Under the pieces are notes generated by a model, which saw only the letters and a program-made list of their open reading frames with translations, had not been told where the DNA came from and did not search any database. This document shows positions 3,056-10,704 of a DNA stretch of 51,123 nt, piece by piece. Source of the DNA: a virus (taxonomy: Duplodnaviria; Heunggongvirae; Uroviricota; Caudoviricetes); the IMG/VR virus record IMGVR_UViG_638341087_000015, positions 1 through 51,123 of that record; one strand, given 5' to 3'. A program made the translations under genes and the position numbers. Every line of letters starts with the position of its first letter. Positions within the stretch are counted from its first letter, which is position 1.

Positions 3056-6000
3056 TCAGATGCTCAGTGCTTCAAGACGACGAAGATCAAAGTCGTTTAA
3101 TTCGTCGGTATAACTTTCGGTAATCGGTGCTGGCCAGTTGTTTGTCTCCAGGGCTTCGTTTATCTGGCGTAGCGTCCGGCGATATTCCTGTCGACCAAGT
3201 TCCAGGAGTTCCTGCGAGGCTTCCACGACTGCCACCCAGTGATAGCCAGCATCTTTGTTGACGAAGATCCAGAAAAATTTGTCCAGGTTTGCCACATCGC
3301 AATACATTGCGGCGCTGAGGTGATAATCACGCTCAATAATTTCACGGTGCAGGCGATCTTTAAGTCGTTCCTGTCGCACATAACCGAGGCTGACTGACTT
3401 CACGTCAGCGCAAATGCTTTCGTATGGCAGCCGGATTTCGATATCAGGACGGACCCTGATTTCCAGCCCGGTTTCTTCATCAAACCCGAAATAGCTGATT
3501 TCAGATTTGCGATCCGGGTGGTTGAGTAGCCTTGCTGCATCGGTATTGTTTTGCAGTGCCGCGTGAATATTTTTTGCCTGTTCATACATCTCCGGACTGA
3601 TAAACGTTTTCCCGGCATTTTCTTCTTGCTGGCGTTTTTGCCAGTCCTCCAGTGTCACCAGTTCCGGGCGAATTTTCCGTGCGATTTCGGTTAATTGCTC
3701 TTTTGTGCCACTGATGTTGTAAGGCAAAGATTTAGCACGTTCTTTTTTTGCCAGTTCTGGGTCTACAGTTTCAATTTGATCCAGAAGCTGCTCCCGTGCT
3801 CCACTGGTTTTCAACAGAGGAGGGAGGCTTGCGTTGTATTCTTTAATACAGGCTTTCATTGCTGATGCTGTGTGTTTTTCCCCCTCAGGAATACGCCGAA
3901 ATTCCACCGGAAGCGAACCGTAAAGGATGCCTGTTTCTTCGGCCCCGGCACTTACAGACAGTGGCTGTATAAGAGTGCTGTTGTAGCTTTCGATCCACTC
4001 TTTCATCTGCTCTGGTGTCATCAGTGCTGGCAGACTGGCATTGTGTTTTTTAATGATGGCGATCAGTTCGCTAGAAGTAGTAACCACATATTCAGGAACC
4101 GGTACCGGAATGGCATATTCATCAGCGAATTTATCCGTTTCCAGAACATAGCTGTGAATGATCCGCCCACGCAGCAGTGCATCACTTTCCTCGTTCGGAA
4201 TAGTTCCGGCAATGTGCCGTCCGTGGTAATACATCAGGCTGATACGGGCATCCTTCAGCATCGTGCTGCTTATTCCGTTGGCGGAGTGATAAACCTCGTT
4301 CGGGAGGTTTTCATAGCGGCCAGGCTCGAAATATGACGGCCACATGATTTCAGTTGCTACAGGAGCTGACGCTTCACCAGTTTCATCACTGCAATCACGA
4401 TGCGGATCGCTGCCAGCATTCTCATTGTGCGGATGTTCAGCGCCTTCCATTTCCACCGGATCTTTTTCCTTAGCTTCAACCTGATTCTCTTCATCGAATG
4501 TTTCCTGGTATGTTGCGTCGCCCGTCACCGCCCCACAGTCAGGGCAGTTATCTCCGCCAGTCTGACCGCAGGCATTGCAGACTATTTCCGGTTCCTGTTG
4601 CACTACTGCCTCAGGTTGTTTCACATCCGGGCTGGTTTTTTCCGTTTCTGGCTGGTTCTGGTACACAGAATCGCGAGTCTGGATCCCCTTAACCCATTTC
4701 GGATCGTTCGGGTCGCTAACTCCGTCAACAAATTCACCACGTGATGCAGCAAGCAATTTATCGGCATCGACAGGATTTTTTGATGGAATGTTTTTCCGGG
4801 CTTCATGGAGTTCTGCCCGCAGTTCCTGATATTTCGCATCAACAGAATTTACCTGTGACTGAGCATCCAGCGGCTGCGTGTCCTGATGATGTTCAGTTGC
4901 GTCCGGTTCCATTGTTTCAGCCTCTCCCTGTTCAACTGCCGTTGTTCCAGATGGTTGCGGTTTTTCTTCATCATCCTGTTTTCCTTCTTCTGTTACTCGC
5001 TGCGGCATCGGGGCAGAGGAGCGACCGCAGGCAATATCCACGATTTCCGGATCAGGGTTGGCATGATCGGTTTCAGTCAGTACTTTGTTCAGATATTCAG
5101 TGACGTGCGCGGGGATGACCTCGATCCCAATTGGTGCTTCTTTTACGGACGCAACCACGATGGCGCGGGAATAATCCAGCCCGCCAGGCATGGTGATGAA
5201 TTTGTCGCGGAAAACAGAAAAGGGCGGTTTATTTTCAGCGATAATTTCCTCAATGCGTTTAGCGTGTGCCGGATGAAGGTTATAGATGTCCAGATCCATT
5301 GAACGGGCCAGTACGCCAGTGGCTACGTCGCGCGCCAGTGACGTCAGATCGTGTACGAAACCTTCGCCGCGATCGGTGAGGTTTCCGCCGCCAGCATTAG
5401 CACCGGAAGCCGTGCGAGTGATGTGTGAAACACGATTACCCTTCATCCACTCTTTTGTCAGCAGTCCTCGATCGGTGTAGTCAGCGTTCAGGTATGCTTC
5501 GAAAAAAGCAGTTATCAGTCCCAGGTTTGAATTACCAGGATTAGGGAAAACTTTGTCAGTGTCACGAACCAGTTTGTGGAGATCGCGAATTTCCAGCGGG
5601 TCGAGCAGGCTGGTTTTGTGGGAAACAGCCAGGGCAGTAACAGCCGGTAGTTCTTCAGCCCGAGCAATGTGTAATGCCTGGAGTCCGTCGCGTGAAACGT
5701 GCGTTACCGGTTTTTCGCTGCCGTGTTGAGCAAGCCAACGAATGGGCAGTTCCTGGCCAGAAATTGGGAGTAGCATATTCTCCTCAATCTCAGTCATGTC
5801 TTCGCCGTTGACGTTGGTATTGCCTTGATAGTGAGCGTTGTCTGGTGCTGCTCCCGGTTTTAGTTCCCATGTCATGGAGTCTTTGCTGAGTTGATAGCGT
5901 TCACTCCAGGTAAAATCGATCTCACCTTCAGCGGGCAGGTCATTAACGACAGGAAAATTCGTGGCAACAGCTTTAAAATAGCTGCTCAGTTTTTTACCTG

Positions 6001-6127
6001 ACTTAACGATCAGGTAGTCCAGAGTGGCACAGGTCGATTCAAAATCGTCGCTTGCCCACAGGACGACGTCAGGTTCACCGGATGATTTTTTCGCTTTCCG
6101 TAACAGGAAGAGTGGTTTTGTGCTCAT
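3056..6127 (-). CDS. recE: Exodeoxyribonuclease VIII-like protein (RecE-like), 1023 aa
   Basis: Large ORF upstream of the recT-position gene; C-terminal region carries a PD...D-x-K style motif (RPDIEI...ADVKS); central acidic region with a CNACG...CPDCG cysteine cluster. Confidence 0.65.
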
Positions 6128-6257
6128 TGTTTTTTAACCTCAACTCAGATTAAAATTCGTTTTGTTCAGTGAATGATCTTGCCGGATACACACTGTTCAT
6201 AGCCTGCGCCATACGCAGGCTATTTCTTTCAGATTTCACCTTTTAATTTCATTGCAA

Positions 6258-6503
6258 TTAGAGTTGCCAGAAATTCGGCTTTTTTTCTGCGGGCAGATTC
6301 TTTCCGGTATGCACCAGGCACATTTTTTTGACACCTTCGTGAAGTGTTTTAACGTTGCCTGATGGACCGTCGATATCAACCACAGTGAATGGGGTTTCTT
6401 TATTTTCTGTTTTAATCACGTAGCCAATACGCTTTCCTTCCAGATTAACTTCGTGAACAATGTCATCAGTAGTTACAACAGTGGCTTCATAACTGGTAAT
6501 CAT
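6258..6503 (-). CDS. racC: Hypothetical small protein (RacC-like)
   Basis: ORF 6258..6551 trimmed to the ATG at 6503, preceded by AAGGAG; position after recE as in Rac. Confidence 0.5.
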   Translation of the reverse strand: MITSYEATVVTTDDIVHEVNLEGKRIGYVIKTENKETPFTVVDIDGPSGNVKTLHEGVKKMCLVHTGKNLPAEKKPNFWQL

Positions 6504-6577
6504 GTTTTTCTCCTTAATTAAGGTTGAGCGAATCCCTGCCATTGCTGGCATAAATTCAGTTTCGCATAGTCAGTTAA

Positions 6578-6748
6578 TTAAAGTTCGTGTGCCATCTGGT
6601 CTTTTTCGGCACATATTTCACTACAATATTTTTTCATTTCCGTCGTTGGGATAACTCCACGCATGAAATGAAGTGGTCTTTTAATGCTTTTGCTTTCTTT
6701 AACTTCTTTATCGCAAAGGTGGTAAGCACATTTTATTTTCTTAGTCAT
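6578..6748 (-). CDS. ydaE: Small Cys-rich protein YdaE-like (56 aa)
   Basis: Not in ORF track (too short); manual translation gives [16 protein letters not shown]...KKYCSEICAEKDQMAHEL; start ATG overlaps the kilR stop (TGATG). Confidence 0.55.
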   Translation of the reverse strand: MTKKIKCAYHLCDKEVKESKSIKRPLHFMRGVIPTTEMKKYCSEICAEKDQMAHEL

Positions 6749-6969
6749 CACCATGACTCCGCCTTTACAGGTAAACCATCACGACCGAGGAAGACTTTAA
6801 TCATGCAGTCAGTAATGCATGTTTTTGTGGTCAGGTTTCGAATATAAAGTTTTCGCTTTTTAATATTGTTTGCCGAGGCAATATATGTCCGGCCGTTATG
6901 AAGAACATAATCACCAGGAGTCACACACTGACGAGGTATTTCATCAGTTCCGAAGTGATGAGCAATCAT
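6748..6969 (-). CDS. kilR: Killing protein KilR-like (73 aa)
   Basis: ORF 6748..6987 trimmed to the ATG at 6969 with GGAGA RBS; sequence [15 protein letters not shown]... matches my recollection of Rac KilR. Confidence 0.65.
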
Positions 6970-7399
6970 AATTATCTCCATTTTCACAAATGAACTTTGT
7001 TGATGCGGTGCCTGGTGCCTCCAGGTGACGTTAACCAGTTAACAATTAACGCCGGATAATCCCCCCATAACACTGATGCTTTTAACTGTTCCGCGTGCGC
7101 TTAGCCGCATTCACCGCATCACAAAATTCACTTTAAAAAGGGCGGACATCAGCCGAACTTCAAGAAAAAACTGATGCCGCCAAGACTACACACAGCAATG
7201 TCGTTATTTACAACCGGAGGCGCACTCCCACCATTTAAATTTAACAGACAAGACCGACTCTTTATGGATATCGGAAATGCGCCTTCGTGTTGCGCCCAGT
7301 TTTATTTCACCACCTCCGGGCTTCGGTGGTCTCGGCTATACCCCTACAGCGAGAGCTTGTGTTAACATTTCAATACCCTTACAGTTGAGAGTTATTGAT

Positions 7400-7888
7400 A
7401 TGTTGGATGTATTTACTCCATTGTTGAAACTTTTTGCTAACGAGCCACTCGAAAGACTTATGTATACGATTATCATTTTTGGTCTCACTCTCTGGCTGAT
7501 ACCGAAAGAGTTTACTGTCGCATTCAATGCTTATACTGAAATACCTTGGCTCTTTCAGATTATCGTTTTTGCCTTTTCTTTCGTGGTCGCCATTTCCTTC
7601 TCAAGATTGCGAGCACATATTCAAAAGCATTATTCATTACTACCAGAGCAACGAGTATTGCTTCGTTTATCTGAGAAAGAAATAGCTGTATTTAAAGATT
7701 TCCTTAAAACAGGAAATCTTATTATCACTTCTCCTTGCCGTAACCCGGTTATGAAAAAATTAGAACGGAAGGGCATCATTCAACATCAGAGTGATAGCGC
7801 AAACTGTTCTTATTATCTCGTCACCGAAAAATACTCCCATTTTATGAAGTTATGCTGGAACAGCAGGAGTAGACGTTTTAATCGTTAG
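7400..7888 (+). CDS. sieB: Superinfection exclusion protein B-like membrane protein (162 aa)
   Basis: Hydrophobic N-terminus; 162 aa from the ATG at 7400; the upstream part of the tracked ORF (7277..) contains a hairpin and is probably non-coding. Confidence 0.6.
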   Translation: MLDVFTPLLKLFANEPLERLMYTIIIFGLTLWLIPKEFTVAFNAYTEIPWLFQIIVFAFSFVVAISFSRLRAHIQKHYSLLPEQRVLLRLSEKEIAVFKDFLKTGNLIITSPCRNPVMKKLERKGIIQHQSDSANCSYYLVTEKYSHFMKLCWNSRSRRFNR

Positions 7889-8040
7889 CTTACTGTGTGC
7901 TTCTCCAACCATCGGCGCGCACCAGTTTCGGTTTTAAATGTTTTGCTTTTGGTATACGTCATAGCAGTGAACGTTCCATCTTGGTTGGGGAACACGCCGC
8001 ACACCATGGATTCGTTATTGCCGAGGTCGATTTTTTGCAT
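7885..8040 (-). CDS. ydaF: Small protein YdaF-like (51 aa)
   Basis: Not in ORF track; manual translation MQKIDLGNNESMVCGVFPNQDGTFTAMTYTKSKTFKTETGARRWLEKHTVS; convergent with sieB. Confidence 0.5.
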   Translation of the reverse strand: MQKIDLGNNESMVCGVFPNQDGTFTAMTYTKSKTFKTETGARRWLEKHTVS

Positions 8041-8050
8041 TTTTCGCACC

Positions 8051-8185
8051 TCACATCTTGTTGTTGCGGATAGAGGCTTCTGCCTGCCAGAGATCCCAGT
8101 CGTTGCTGCGTAAAGCCTGCACAGCCTGGTTGTAAGTGATGCCGCAACAATCCATCAAATACTGAACTACTTCGTAATGCACCAT
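8051..8185 (-). CDS. ydaG: Small protein YdaG-like (44 aa)
   Basis: Not in ORF track; manual translation MVHYEVVQYLMDCCGITYNQAVQALRSNDWDLWQAEASIRNNKM, preceded by AAGGGGAGAG. Confidence 0.5.
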   Translation of the reverse strand: MVHYEVVQYLMDCCGITYNQAVQALRSNDWDLWQAEASIRNNKM

Positions 8186-8355
8186 CTTATCTCTCCCCTT
8201 AACGCCGGGTGGCGGAACTAACTGCTGCACTGCAAAATTTGAATCCCGCCGTCATGTTCATACGCCTCGGGCTGGCTACTTAACCCCTTACCACGGCCTG
8301 GTAACTCGAAGTATTGCCCGGCGTTCTGTGGGGCGGGGTGGGTGGTATGCTGGAG

Positions 8356-8420
8356 CTATAGGTAATGCCTAATTGATTGTCAATAGGCTATGCCTAATGT
8401 TTTGAGCGTAACCTAATAGG
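8356..8420. promoter_or_regulatory. Left operator-like cluster (TAGGC-N3-GCCTA half-site repeats) downstream of racR
   Basis: 8380..8399 tcaataggctatgcctaatg is the exact reverse complement of 9021..9040; additional related sites at about 8356..8373 and 8409..8420. Confidence 0.55.
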
Positions 8421-8492
8421 TGATGACGACAGGAGAAAGTGATGGGGAGTTAAATAACGGAATCCAGGAGTTTTCCGTCAGACCATATAAGT

Positions 8493-8969
8493 TTAAGTTC
8501 CAGTTTTTGTGATGTTCTGGCTTTTTCGTTCAGATTCTAGAGCTTTCAGATACTTACCCACTTTCATTTCCATCGCTGCTATGTAGGCGCGAACATCGTG
8601 GTCAACCCAATCTGGTTCTGTAGCATTTCCAGATAACAGGAAAGCTACAATCGCTCTTATTTCATCAGAGGCTGCTTGATAAAGGTTGTTTATATCTAAA
8701 AGTTCACTTTTTGTATCTGAATTGGTGGGGGTTGGTATGGGGTATTCGTTAAGCCCCCAATGCTCTGGACCAACAACATCAGAAAAGAAACGCCATAATT
8801 CTGGAAGTTTATCTTTACTTATGGAGCCTTTCTTAATCCAGTCATAAATTGATGGTGGTTGGACTTTGAAGTGGCGTGCGACCTCCGCCTTTGATTTGAC
8901 GGATCCCGATGCGATTTTTTTGTTAATGGCCTGCTCTATCGCTCGGCCTAAGTCTTTACCACTAAGCAT
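8493..8969 (-). CDS. racR: Prophage repressor RacR-like (158 aa)
   Basis: 158-aa ORF divergent from ydaS; flanked on both sides by operator-like repeats; size and position match Rac racR. Confidence 0.75.
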   Translation of the reverse strand: MLSGKDLGRAIEQAINKKIASGSVKSKAEVARHFKVQPPSIYDWIKKGSISKDKLPELWRFFSDVVGPEHWGLNEYPIPTPTNSDTKSELLDINNLYQAASDEIRAIVAFLLSGNATEPDWVDHDVRAYIAAMEMKVGKYLKALESERKSQNITKTGT

Positions 8970-8990
8970 TGCTTAATATTCTCCTATGCT

Positions 8991-9066
8991 CATTGCATTA
9001 GGCAATCCCTACCCTCATTGCATTAGGCATAGCCTATTGACATTTATGTTAGGCGTCGCCTAATAT
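8991..9066. promoter_or_regulatory. Right operator/promoter region between racR and ydaS
   Basis: Repeats cattgcattaggca (8991..9004 and 9017..9030), 20-bp element 9021..9040, palindrome ttaggcgtcgcctaa (9049..9063); TTGACA at 9036..9041 with TAATAT at 9061..9066 upstream of the ydaS start. Confidence 0.55.
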
Positions 9067-9092
9067 TTCTGTGTGTTTTTGGAGTTCATTCG

Positions 9093-9389
9093 ATGAAAAA
9101 AGAGAACTATTCATTCAAGCAAGCTTGTGCTGTTGTCGGTGGGCAATCAGCAATGGCTAGGCTTTTAGGTGTATCACCTCCAAGCGTAAATCAATGGATC
9201 AAAGGGGTACGTCAATTGCCTGCCGAGAGATGTCCAGCAATTGAACGTGCAACAAGAGGTGAGGTTCTGTGCGAAGAACTTCGTCCTGATATTGACTGGT
9301 CATATTTACGACGTTCGGCATGTTGTTCGCAGAATATGTCAGTGAAGCAACTAAATGACAGTAACAAATCCTCATTTGATCATACCTGA
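9093..9389 (+). CDS. ydaS: Cro-like HTH protein YdaS-like (98 aa)
   Basis: ATG with GGAG RBS; divergent from racR; 98 aa as in Rac ydaS. Confidence 0.7.
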   Translation: MKKENYSFKQACAVVGGQSAMARLLGVSPPSVNQWIKGVRQLPAERCPAIERATRGEVLCEELRPDIDWSYLRRSACCSQNMSVKQLNDSNKSSFDHT

Positions 9390-9411
9390 AACATCAAGAG
9401 GCAAATGATTC

Positions 9412-9834
9412 ATGAAAATCAAGCATGAGCACATCGAATCAGTGTTGTTTGCCCTAGCAGCCGAAAAAGGGCAGGCATGGGTAGCCAATGCCATTACTGA
9501 AGAATATCTGCGCCAGGGGGGCGGCGAATTGCCCCTGGTTCCAGGCAAGGACTGGAACAATCAGCAGAATATCTATCACCGTTGGTTGAAAGGTGAAACG
9601 AATGCGCAAAGGGAAAAAATTCAGAAATTGATCCCTGCGGTTCTGGCAATTCTTCCTCGCGAGCTGCGTCACCGACTCTGCATCTTCGATACCCTGGAAC
9701 GCCGTGCATTACTGGCGGCGCAGGAAGCGTTAAGTACGGCAATTGATGCGCATGATGATGCAGTCCAGGCCGTTTACCGGAAAGCGCATTTCAGCGGCGG
9801 CGGGTCTTCCGACGATTCTGTCATTGTTCATTAA
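9412..9834 (+). CDS. ydaT: YdaT-like protein (140 aa)
   Basis: Immediately follows ydaS; 140 aa as in Rac ydaT. Confidence 0.65.
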   Translation: MKIKHEHIESVLFALAAEKGQAWVANAITEEYLRQGGGELPLVPGKDWNNQQNIYHRWLKGETNAQREKIQKLIPAVLAILPRELRHRLCIFDTLERRALLAAQEALSTAIDAHDDAVQAVYRKAHFSGGGSSDDSVIVH

Positions 9835-9846
9835 GCAAAAGTTTCC

Positions 9847-10704
9847 ATGCTGTTTGTGCTTATTCTAAGCAATCGGGCAGCATCATACGGGGCAATTATG
9901 GCCGCATTACCATACATGCAACTGTACATAGCTGATTACCTGGCTGACACCATGCATTTGTCAGCAGAGGAGCATGGTGCGTATTTGTTGCTGATGTTCA
10001 ATTACTGGCAAACAGGAAAGCCAATACCTAAAAACAGGCTGGCAAAAATTGCCCGTCTGACTAACGAGCGATGGGCTGATGTTGAACCGTCCTTGCGGGA
10101 GTTTTTTTGCGATAACGGCGAGGAATGGGTGCATCTTCGGATTGAGGAAGATCTGGCATCAGTCAGGGAAAAATTAACCAAAAAATCAGCCGCAGGAAAA
10201 GCATCGGTTCAGGCCAGAAGAAGCAGAAAGGAAGCAGATGTTCAAACAAAACAAGAGAGAAATTTAACAGGTGTTCAAACAGATGTTGAAGTGGTGTTTG
10301 AACATGATGTCAACACAAAGGCAACTAATAAAGATACAGATAAAGATCTAAAAACAGATCCCCCCCTAAATCCCCCCCGGGGGAATCGAGGTGTCAAAAA
10401 GTTTGACCCTCTGGATATTGCTTTGCCGAACTGGATTTCTGTCTCGCTCTGGCGTGAGTGGGTTGAATTTCGCCAGGCATTGCGTAAACCGATTCGAACG
10501 GAGCAGGGCGCTAACGGGGCGATACGGGAGCTGGAAAAATTCCGCCAGCAGGGTTTTTCACCTGAGCAGGTGATTCGACACAGCATCGCCAATGAATACC
10601 AGGGCTTGTTCGCGCCAAAAGGTGTTCGACCTGAGACGTTACTCCGACAGGTTAACACCGTCTCGTTACCGGATAGTGCGATCCCGCCAGGCTTCAGGGG
10701 GTAA
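9847..10704 (+). CDS. ydaU: Replication-associated protein YdaU-like (285 aa)
   Basis: Position upstream of the DnaC-like gene; 285 aa as in Rac ydaU. Confidence 0.65.
   Translation: MLFVLILSNRAASYGAIMAALPYMQLYIADYLADTMHLSAEEHGAYLLLMFNYWQTGKPIPKNRLAKIARLTNERWADVEPSLREFFCDNGEEWVHLRIEEDLASVREKLTKKSAAGKASVQARRSRKEADVQTKQERNLTGVQTDVEVVFEHDVNTKATNKDTDKDLKTDPPLNPPRGNRGVKKFDPLDIALPNWISVSLWREWVEFRQALRKPIRTEQGANGAIRELEKFRQQGFSPEQVIRHSIANEYQGLFAPKGVRPETLLRQVNTVSLPDSAIPPGFRG

Follow-up and report, generated by a model that had tools for sequence, protein, structure and literature searches.

In phage lambda, the repressor gene lies between two operator arrays, OL and OR, which are placed over divergent early promoters (PMC8630535). 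A comparable arrangement has been described for prophage CP-933P, where PaaR2, a repressor in the position of RacR, acts together with YdaS, and a second promoter with matching operators, PL933P/OL1-3, is found beyond the repressor operon (Jurenas 2021, PMC8630535). The -35 and -10 hexamers of PL933P are identical to those of PR, and PL933P/OL is repressed about 100-fold by PaaR2 and YdaS (PMC8630535). In Qin, the CI-like repressor DicA silences a promoter located just downstream of its own gene, dicBp, which drives a DUF1391 gene, the DicF RNA and a division-inhibitor operon (PMC10448788).

For the Rac prophage of E. coli K-12, binding of RacR to the racR-ydaS intergenic region was demonstrated by EMSA and ChIP-qPCR (Krishnamurthi 2017, PMC5700373). 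DNase I footprinting gave a monomer motif, ATTAGGC, and an operator, (T/A)TAGGC-n3-GCCTA(T/A); one operator lies on the ydaST promoter, PydaST, the spacer of another, O3, holds the racR ATG, and PydaST itself (-35 TTGACA, -10 TAATAT) was mapped and mutated (Wisniewska 2022, PMC9638921). Four RacR operators are named in later work (Wons 2025, PMC11879457), and RacR is an octamer in solution (PMC11014345). Recent RacR papers call the RacR regulon uncharacterised, and the three studies of the operators (PMC5700373, PMC9638921, PMC11879457) treat the intergenic region only; sites on the ydaG side and a leftward promoter are absent from them and from a September 2026 preprint.

The window, that is, the whole stretch of 51,123 bp analysed here, contains the immunity region of a Rac-type prophage of E. 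coli. It begins with intR, adjoining ttcA, and its positions 8200-9420 are 98.5% identical to K-12 Rac and 99.6% identical to strain MEI003. The genes around the repressor are as follows.

7885-8049, minus strand: ydaF, left of ydaG
8051..8230, minus strand: ydaG, gene 1 of the leftward operon (ORF; start annotated at 8185 in related genomes)
8493..8969, minus strand: racR, prophage repressor of 158 aa (ORF; annotated RacR in near-identical genomes)
9093..9389, plus strand: ydaS, Cro-like regulator, gene 1 of the rightward operon (Pfam YdaS_toxin 2.6e-31, P22_Cro 3.4e-9)
9412-9834, plus strand: ydaT (ORF)

Left of ydaF are sieB, on the plus strand, and then kilR, ydaE, racC, recE, recT, ralR, xisR and intR, all on the minus strand. 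RacR gave only a weak HTH_17 match against Pfam and lacks a C-terminal Peptidase_S24 domain, so that it does not belong with the autocleavable repressors of CI/LexA type. In this it is unlike the lambda repressor, and an N/nut system, too, was not recognised on the Rac left arm.

On the right of racR, the window carries the same system as K-12 (95-98% identity), with the same four inverted repeats, the same motif and the same -35 and -10 of PydaST.

8963..8975, no strand: right operator TAAGCATTGCTTA, 2 mismatches, the published O3, overlapping the racR start codon (PMC9638921)
8983..9032, no strand: 25-bp tandem duplication, copies 8983-9007 and 9008-9032, 80% identity
8999..9011, no strand: right operator TAGGCAATCCCTA, 1 mismatch, over the racR promoter region (motif scan; PMC9638921)
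9024..9036, no strand: right operator TAGGCATAGCCTA, 0 mismatches, abutting the -35 (motif scan; PMC9638921)
9050..9062, no strand: right operator TAGGCGTCGCCTA, 0 mismatches, nearest ydaS, in the PydaST spacer with a 2-nt overlap with the -10 (footprint and motif, PMC9638921)
9037..9066, plus strand: PydaST, the PR analog, with -35 TTGACA at 9037-9042, an 18-nt spacer and -10 TAATAT at 9061-9066 (10/12 in the promoter scan; start and -10 mutagenesis published)
Right cassette, plus strand: distal operator 9024-9036, -35 9037-9042, 7-nt linker, proximal operator 9050-9062, -10 9061-9066

Thus racR on the minus strand diverges from the cro-like ydaS on the plus strand, with four sites between and over the two genes, and the preliminary description was right to assign a TTGACA -35 for ydaS to this array. 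This right half of the arrangement is already published and experimentally shown. Four right-hand operators are present in E. coli Rac, not three, because of the 25-bp tandem duplication; the relatives in Mixta, Morganella, Proteus, Klebsiella and Burkholderiales have three.

A scan of the whole window with TAGGCNNNGCCTA at no more than one mismatch returned five matches, at 8359, 8384, 8999, 9024 and 9050. All are inside 8359-9062, with 0.96 expected by chance and 0/100 shuffles reaching five, and no copy at this stringency lies outside the two arrays in the 51 kb, so that the motif search proposed in the preliminary description did find the sites clustered beside racR. At no more than two mismatches, the nine matches, one of them 8963-8975, do not exceed the chance expectation of 15.3. 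Two of the five stand on the far side of racR, in the interval before ydaG, and there they are combined with promoter hexamers.

8359..8371, no strand: OL1, left candidate operator TAGGTAATGCCTA, 1 mismatch, in the spacer of the leftward promoter with a 2-nt overlap with the -10
8384..8396, no strand: OL2, left candidate operator TAGGCTATGCCTA, 0 mismatches, directly next to the leftward -35; among relatives its half-sites stay fixed and its spacer varies
8355..8383, minus strand: proposed PL, read from the sequence, with -35 TTGACA at 8383..8378, a 17-nt spacer and -10 TATAGC at 8360..8355
Left cassette, minus strand: distal operator 8384-8396, -35 8383..8378, 6-nt linker, proximal operator 8359-8371, -10 8360..8355
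8403..8424, no strand: weak third left candidate, 8403-8415 (TGAGCGTAACCTA, 3 mismatches), with its half-site ACCTAAT conserved

The same cassette, namely an operator TAGGCnnnGCCTA, TTGACA, 6-7 nt, a second operator and a -10, is therefore found on both sides of racR, facing outward, and in both copies the last two bases of the proximal operator are the first two of the -10. Measured against (T/A)TAGGC-n3-GCCTA(T/A), the left sites aTAGGTAATGCCTAa and aTAGGCTATGCCTAa have one mismatch and none, and the right ones 0, 0, 1 and 2; the left sites are spaced by 25 bp and neighbouring right sites by 25-26 bp. On the racR strand of K-12, the left cassette reads TTGACA-17-TATAGT, which the promoter scan scored as an 11/12 consensus promoter, and a predicted early promoter with candidate operators is thus located beyond the far end of the repressor operon. 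We consider that the left cassette is very probably the equivalent of PL/OL and controlled by RacR. It looks like PL/OL, and it appears to be new: no earlier description of it was found for Rac. In the open-access literature, RacR binding and transcription-start data for the left sites, a Rac OL/PL, RacR looping and RacR ChIP-exo were not found; older or subscription work may cover the sites. The assignment of the left operators is new and modestly useful.

The two arrays do not follow the three-plus-three layout of lambda that the preliminary description had seen in them. Of two further sites that it placed on each side, those at 8356-8373 and 9049-9063 stand, with true limits of 8359-8371 and 9050-9062; that at 8991-9004 was misplaced, the palindrome being 8999-9011, and 8409-8420 is no site, having no full-length match, the best candidate there being 8403-8415. 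Site 8963-8975 had been missed. The left array in fact has two sites together with a weak half-site, and the right array has four, with 13-bp cores and a 3-bp spacer, as against three plus three in lambda. The spacing of the sites is nevertheless like that of lambda, about 2.4 helical turns, and the racR transcript is leaderless like that of cI. Apart from the three-plus-three count, the locus has the features of a lambdoid immunity module as far as its sequence tells, with left-hand RacR binding as the predicted part, and the layout is an ordinary one.

As regards the rejected third left site, only the ACCTAAT half-site and a palindrome near it are conserved, and this in E. coli-type prophages alone. 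ACCTAATAGGTGATG (8410-8424), which holds the 11-bp palindrome ACCTAATAGGT, is kept in these prophages while its flanks diverge; it resembles two back-to-back RacR half-sites and is absent from relatives in other genera.

Between the cassettes, an exact reverse complement had been pointed out at 8380-8399 and 9021-9040. It is real, and even longer than stated.

8378..8399, no strand: left arm of the inverted repeat, OL2 plus the -35 (exact 22-bp match)
9021..9042, no strand: right arm of the inverted repeat, operator 9024-9036 plus the -35 (exact 22-bp match)

The repeat extends to 33 nt at 88%, and the content of its exact 22 bp is the distal operator plus the -35 of the two promoters. It is exact in the window because the spacer of site 9024-9036 is ATA there instead of the ACA of K-12, where the arms differ by this one base within the operator spacer. 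A perfect 22-bp inverted repeat around a single gene might suggest a small mobile element with racR as its cargo and the arms as its ends. Alternatively, the palindromes might be RNA hairpin terminators, and indeed 8384-8396 and 9046-9066 came out as terminator-like in a scan of the plus strand. However, racR alone lies between the arms, with no transposase or recombinase, and the K-12 arms have already drifted one base apart. The palindromes have 5-bp stems and 3-nt loops, no gene on the plus strand upstream would need terminating, and the right-hand "terminator" is a footprinted operator in a mapped promoter. Either version is extremely improbable. A transposable element with terminal inverted repeats was rejected, its arms being operator plus -35, and so was an intrinsic terminator, with its 5-bp stems; shuffled versions of the racR 3′ region fold just as well as the region itself (z -0.64).

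Conservation argues for a functional promoter-operator unit on the left. E. coli-type prophages, defined as those with RacR at least 85% identical, gave 37 unique sequences for the left side and 47 for the right. In these, half-sites, -35 and -10 show little or no variation, and what does vary are the 3-bp spacers, the linkers and the degenerate position of the half-site. The left cassette recurs beside RacR homologs of 46-100% identity in six genera, so that the repeats are not absent from related prophages, an absence that would have refuted the proposal. The homologs at 46-75% identity are those of Klebsiella phage KpF5, Mixta, Morganella, Proteus, an Achromobacter MAG and Pigmentiphaga. 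Downstream of every one of them the same cassette recurs, its two sites spaced by exactly 25 bp, and the distance from the repressor to the pair can be as short as 91 bp or as long as about 2,300 bp. In these distant relatives the half-sites persist whereas spacers and linkers differ, the -10 is mostly TAATAT, and the DNA around the cassette can no longer be aligned. The first 75 residues of the repressor hardly change from one of these lineages to another.

The same pairing was seen among 120 viral contigs retrieved via one cassette. Since the sample was ascertained in this way, information comes solely from whether the second cassette is there as well; both outward-facing cassettes were present in 94 of the 104 contigs that encode a RacR homolog. 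The exceptions are contig ends, or belong to a class with S24 fusions whose right array departs from the search pattern. The 16 contigs with a cassette and no RacR match are mostly cut at the end of the locus or have unrelated HTH proteins.

Comparison with prophages of other immunity places the left cassette at the edge of an exchangeable module. This edge lies at the start of a leader shared with them.

8186..8347, minus strand: leader of the leftward transcript, upstream of ydaG, common to heteroimmune prophages; homology ends at the predicted PL start

With 8200-9420 as the query, about 3,700 E. coli genomes match the first 150 bases only and 1,085 match most of it. In two prophages with other repressors, homology spans the ydaG leader and ends at about 8347, seven bases past the left -10, and beyond this point heteroimmune Rac/Qin-like prophages each have palindromes of their own. 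The operators are thus replaced together with the repressor. Because homology stops at about 8347 and the palindromes beyond it differ, the left cassette occupies the edge of the immunity-specific module, the place of PL/OL. CP-933P, whose repressor and operators (GTTTAGTAA-type repeats) are unlike those of Rac and whose toxin-antitoxin pair is co-transcribed with the repressor, and Qin, with a different repressor family and different operators, show the same position in use. Qin-like prophages have the ydaG/ydfA leader in common with the window, K-12 Qin keeping its last ~45 nt only.

Published expression data accord with direct control of the left arm. When RacR is lowered, ydaF, ydaG, ydaE and racC rise about 40-fold, and kilR, ydaC and ralA about 70-fold (PMC6765115). 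For xisR and intR, described as "far away" from racR, the increase on lowering RacR is about 100-fold, an effect for which the published RacR work offers no mechanism. Furthermore, a CRISPRi complex placed inside the racR coding sequence derepresses ydaG, kilR, ydaE, racC, recE, recT, ralR, xisR and intR (preprint 10.64898/2026.09.06.749655). Such a roadblock would stop read-through from the racR promoters and yet the left arm still goes up, from which we infer a promoter downstream of racR; with no other motif copy in 51 kb, the left cassette alone qualifies as a candidate for controlling the left arm directly. The derepression could in part be indirect, through YdaS/YdaT or prophage excision. 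The proposal in the preliminary description that RacR controls both flanking units is therefore published for the right, and for the left it gains support from the shared cassette, its conservation and the depletion data, with RacR predicted to bind there.

Another way to silence the left arm has been documented. Transcription coming from racR is kept out of kilR by a Rho-dependent terminator within the racR gene, to which the silencing of kilR was ascribed; when this terminator fails, the outcome is lethal through kil (PMC4150792). On this basis, the left repeat might be a non-functional remnant of duplication or recombination where the immunity module ends, the left arm being kept silent solely by Rho-dependent termination of racR read-through at this trac terminator, and no strong intrinsic terminator is present between racR and the left sites. 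However, half-sites, spacing, -35 and -10 would hardly be kept across genera and two bacterial orders amid unalignable surroundings in a remnant, the left arm is derepressed despite the roadblock inside racR, and heteroimmune prophages have their own palindromes at the same spot. We regard a mere remnant as very improbable. The Rho-dependent terminator is a second layer of control, which neither substitutes for PL nor requires it.

If the left cassette is PL/OL, RacR would bind the left sites, and its dimers at OL2 and OL1 would occlude the -35 and -10 of PL, like the two PydaST operators on the right. Leftward transcription would start near 8348, and the PL transcript would run through ydaG, ydaF, kilR, ydaE, racC, recE, recT, ralR and xisR to intR. 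On loss of RacR, both arms would fire at once. A RacR-controlled PL, 110 bp beyond racR, would give a direct explanation of the left-arm RacR regulon including the rise of xisR and intR, and a single derepression event would turn on kilR, recET and ralR together with the excision genes. The wider meaning is modest, as this would be the textbook lambdoid layout with one more repressor family.

The window copy has a change of its own in this promoter. Its left -10 is TATAGC; the hexamer is TATAGT in K-12, MEI003, O157 prophages, phage vB_EcoS-683R6 and 69 viral contigs. The plus-strand G at 8355 occurs in 0/576 complete E. coli genomes holding this 70-mer, and it is also absent from 69/69 E. coli-type viral contigs and from the closest genome. 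The promoter scan of the window found no promoter at the position of the left -10. Few promoter positions are as highly conserved as the final T of the -10 hexamer, and PL is therefore likely to be weaker in the window; the T-to-C change at the last base probably either weakens PL in this copy or is a sequencing error.

The same change bears on whether the left sites serve mainly as a looping anchor, through which a RacR octamer bridges to the right operators, tightens repression of PydaST and tunes racR autoregulation, with little or no role for PL, especially in the window, where the -10 lacks its last T. RacR is indeed an octamer in solution (PMC11014345), and two strong sites on each side, about 640 bp apart, recall OL1-OL2 and OR1-OR2 of lambda. 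On the other hand, a pure anchor would have no use for a -35 and a -10, yet these accompany the sites in every lineage, and the authors of the octamer explained it through the four right-hand sites. The centre-to-centre distance between OL and OR is 640 bp in the window and 591-1930 bp in relatives, shifting by 1-2 bp among close ones; as it varies so, helical phasing of OL against OR speaks neither for nor against looping and was set aside as an argument. Sites used mainly as an anchor seem unlikely, and looping is in any case compatible with the PL/OL assignment and not exclusive of it. The octamer could then bridge OL and OR rather than fill the four right-hand sites.

More tentatively, the two cassettes may form one device, in which an octamer on OL1-OL2 and the two PydaST operators closes a ~640-bp loop round racR and couples both early promoters with racR autoregulation, as in lambda but 4-6 times shorter, and the cassette with the 75-residue DNA-binding domain of RacR may make up a portable unit of immunity that evolution has combined with two or more unrelated C-terminal domains. 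We hold this combined proposal to be possible though not the likelier outcome. The two C-terminal domains would be the RacR oligomerisation domain in Enterobacterales and the S24 autocleavage domain in Burkholderiales phages. As in the Rac-type module, the repressor of lambda forms an octamer, and extra genes can be accommodated between the repressor gene and OL.

In the Achromobacter MAG (L013 2501-3598) and Pigmentiphaga (L014), a 365-aa repressor was found in which the RacR-like N-terminal 77 residues (75% identity) are fused to Peptidase_S24, the match of the Achromobacter protein to this family being 1.2e-13. This class has the same TAGGC-N3-GCCTA cassettes on both sides. Because the S24 fusions keep these operators, the operator motif follows the DNA-binding domain, and the domain swap to Peptidase_S24, to judge by the operators, keeps operator specificity.

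The slot between the RacR homolog and the leftward cassette is occupied in KpF5 (L003 3634-4803) and about 20 similar viral contigs by a 389-aa HSDR_N (type I restriction) protein. Its gene stands where lambda has rexAB and may serve in defence, with expression from the prophage.

As for other elements of the region, the published YdaT box ATGATTCATGAAAATCAA is at 9406-9423, overlapping the ydaT start codon, and is unchanged in the window; on the left side, only a TTGATT half-site at 8373-8378 was found, without an AATCAA partner. The ydaG leader, about 160 nt long, shows stronger conservation than the operators do. It has a C-rich 5′ end, which is paired with the ydaG ribosome-binding site in the MFE fold (z -2.15), and on these grounds the leader could be a Rho-loading or translation-control element. 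Few substitutions occur in it in L139 and L140, and covariation there did not support the predicted long-range helix.

An Rfam scan of 6000-10000 gave no match in the ydaG leader and only below-threshold matches further left, both on the minus strand in the sieB-kilR interval: STnc100 at 6955-7138 (42 bits, gathering score 47) and DicF at 7140-7194 (41.1 bits, gathering score 48). The DicF-like stretch, which is also present in K-12 Rac, has the 5′ sequence TTTGGCGGYATCAGTTTT and the terminator in common with K-12 DicF, and its place in the operon is the same as that of dicF before dicB in Qin.
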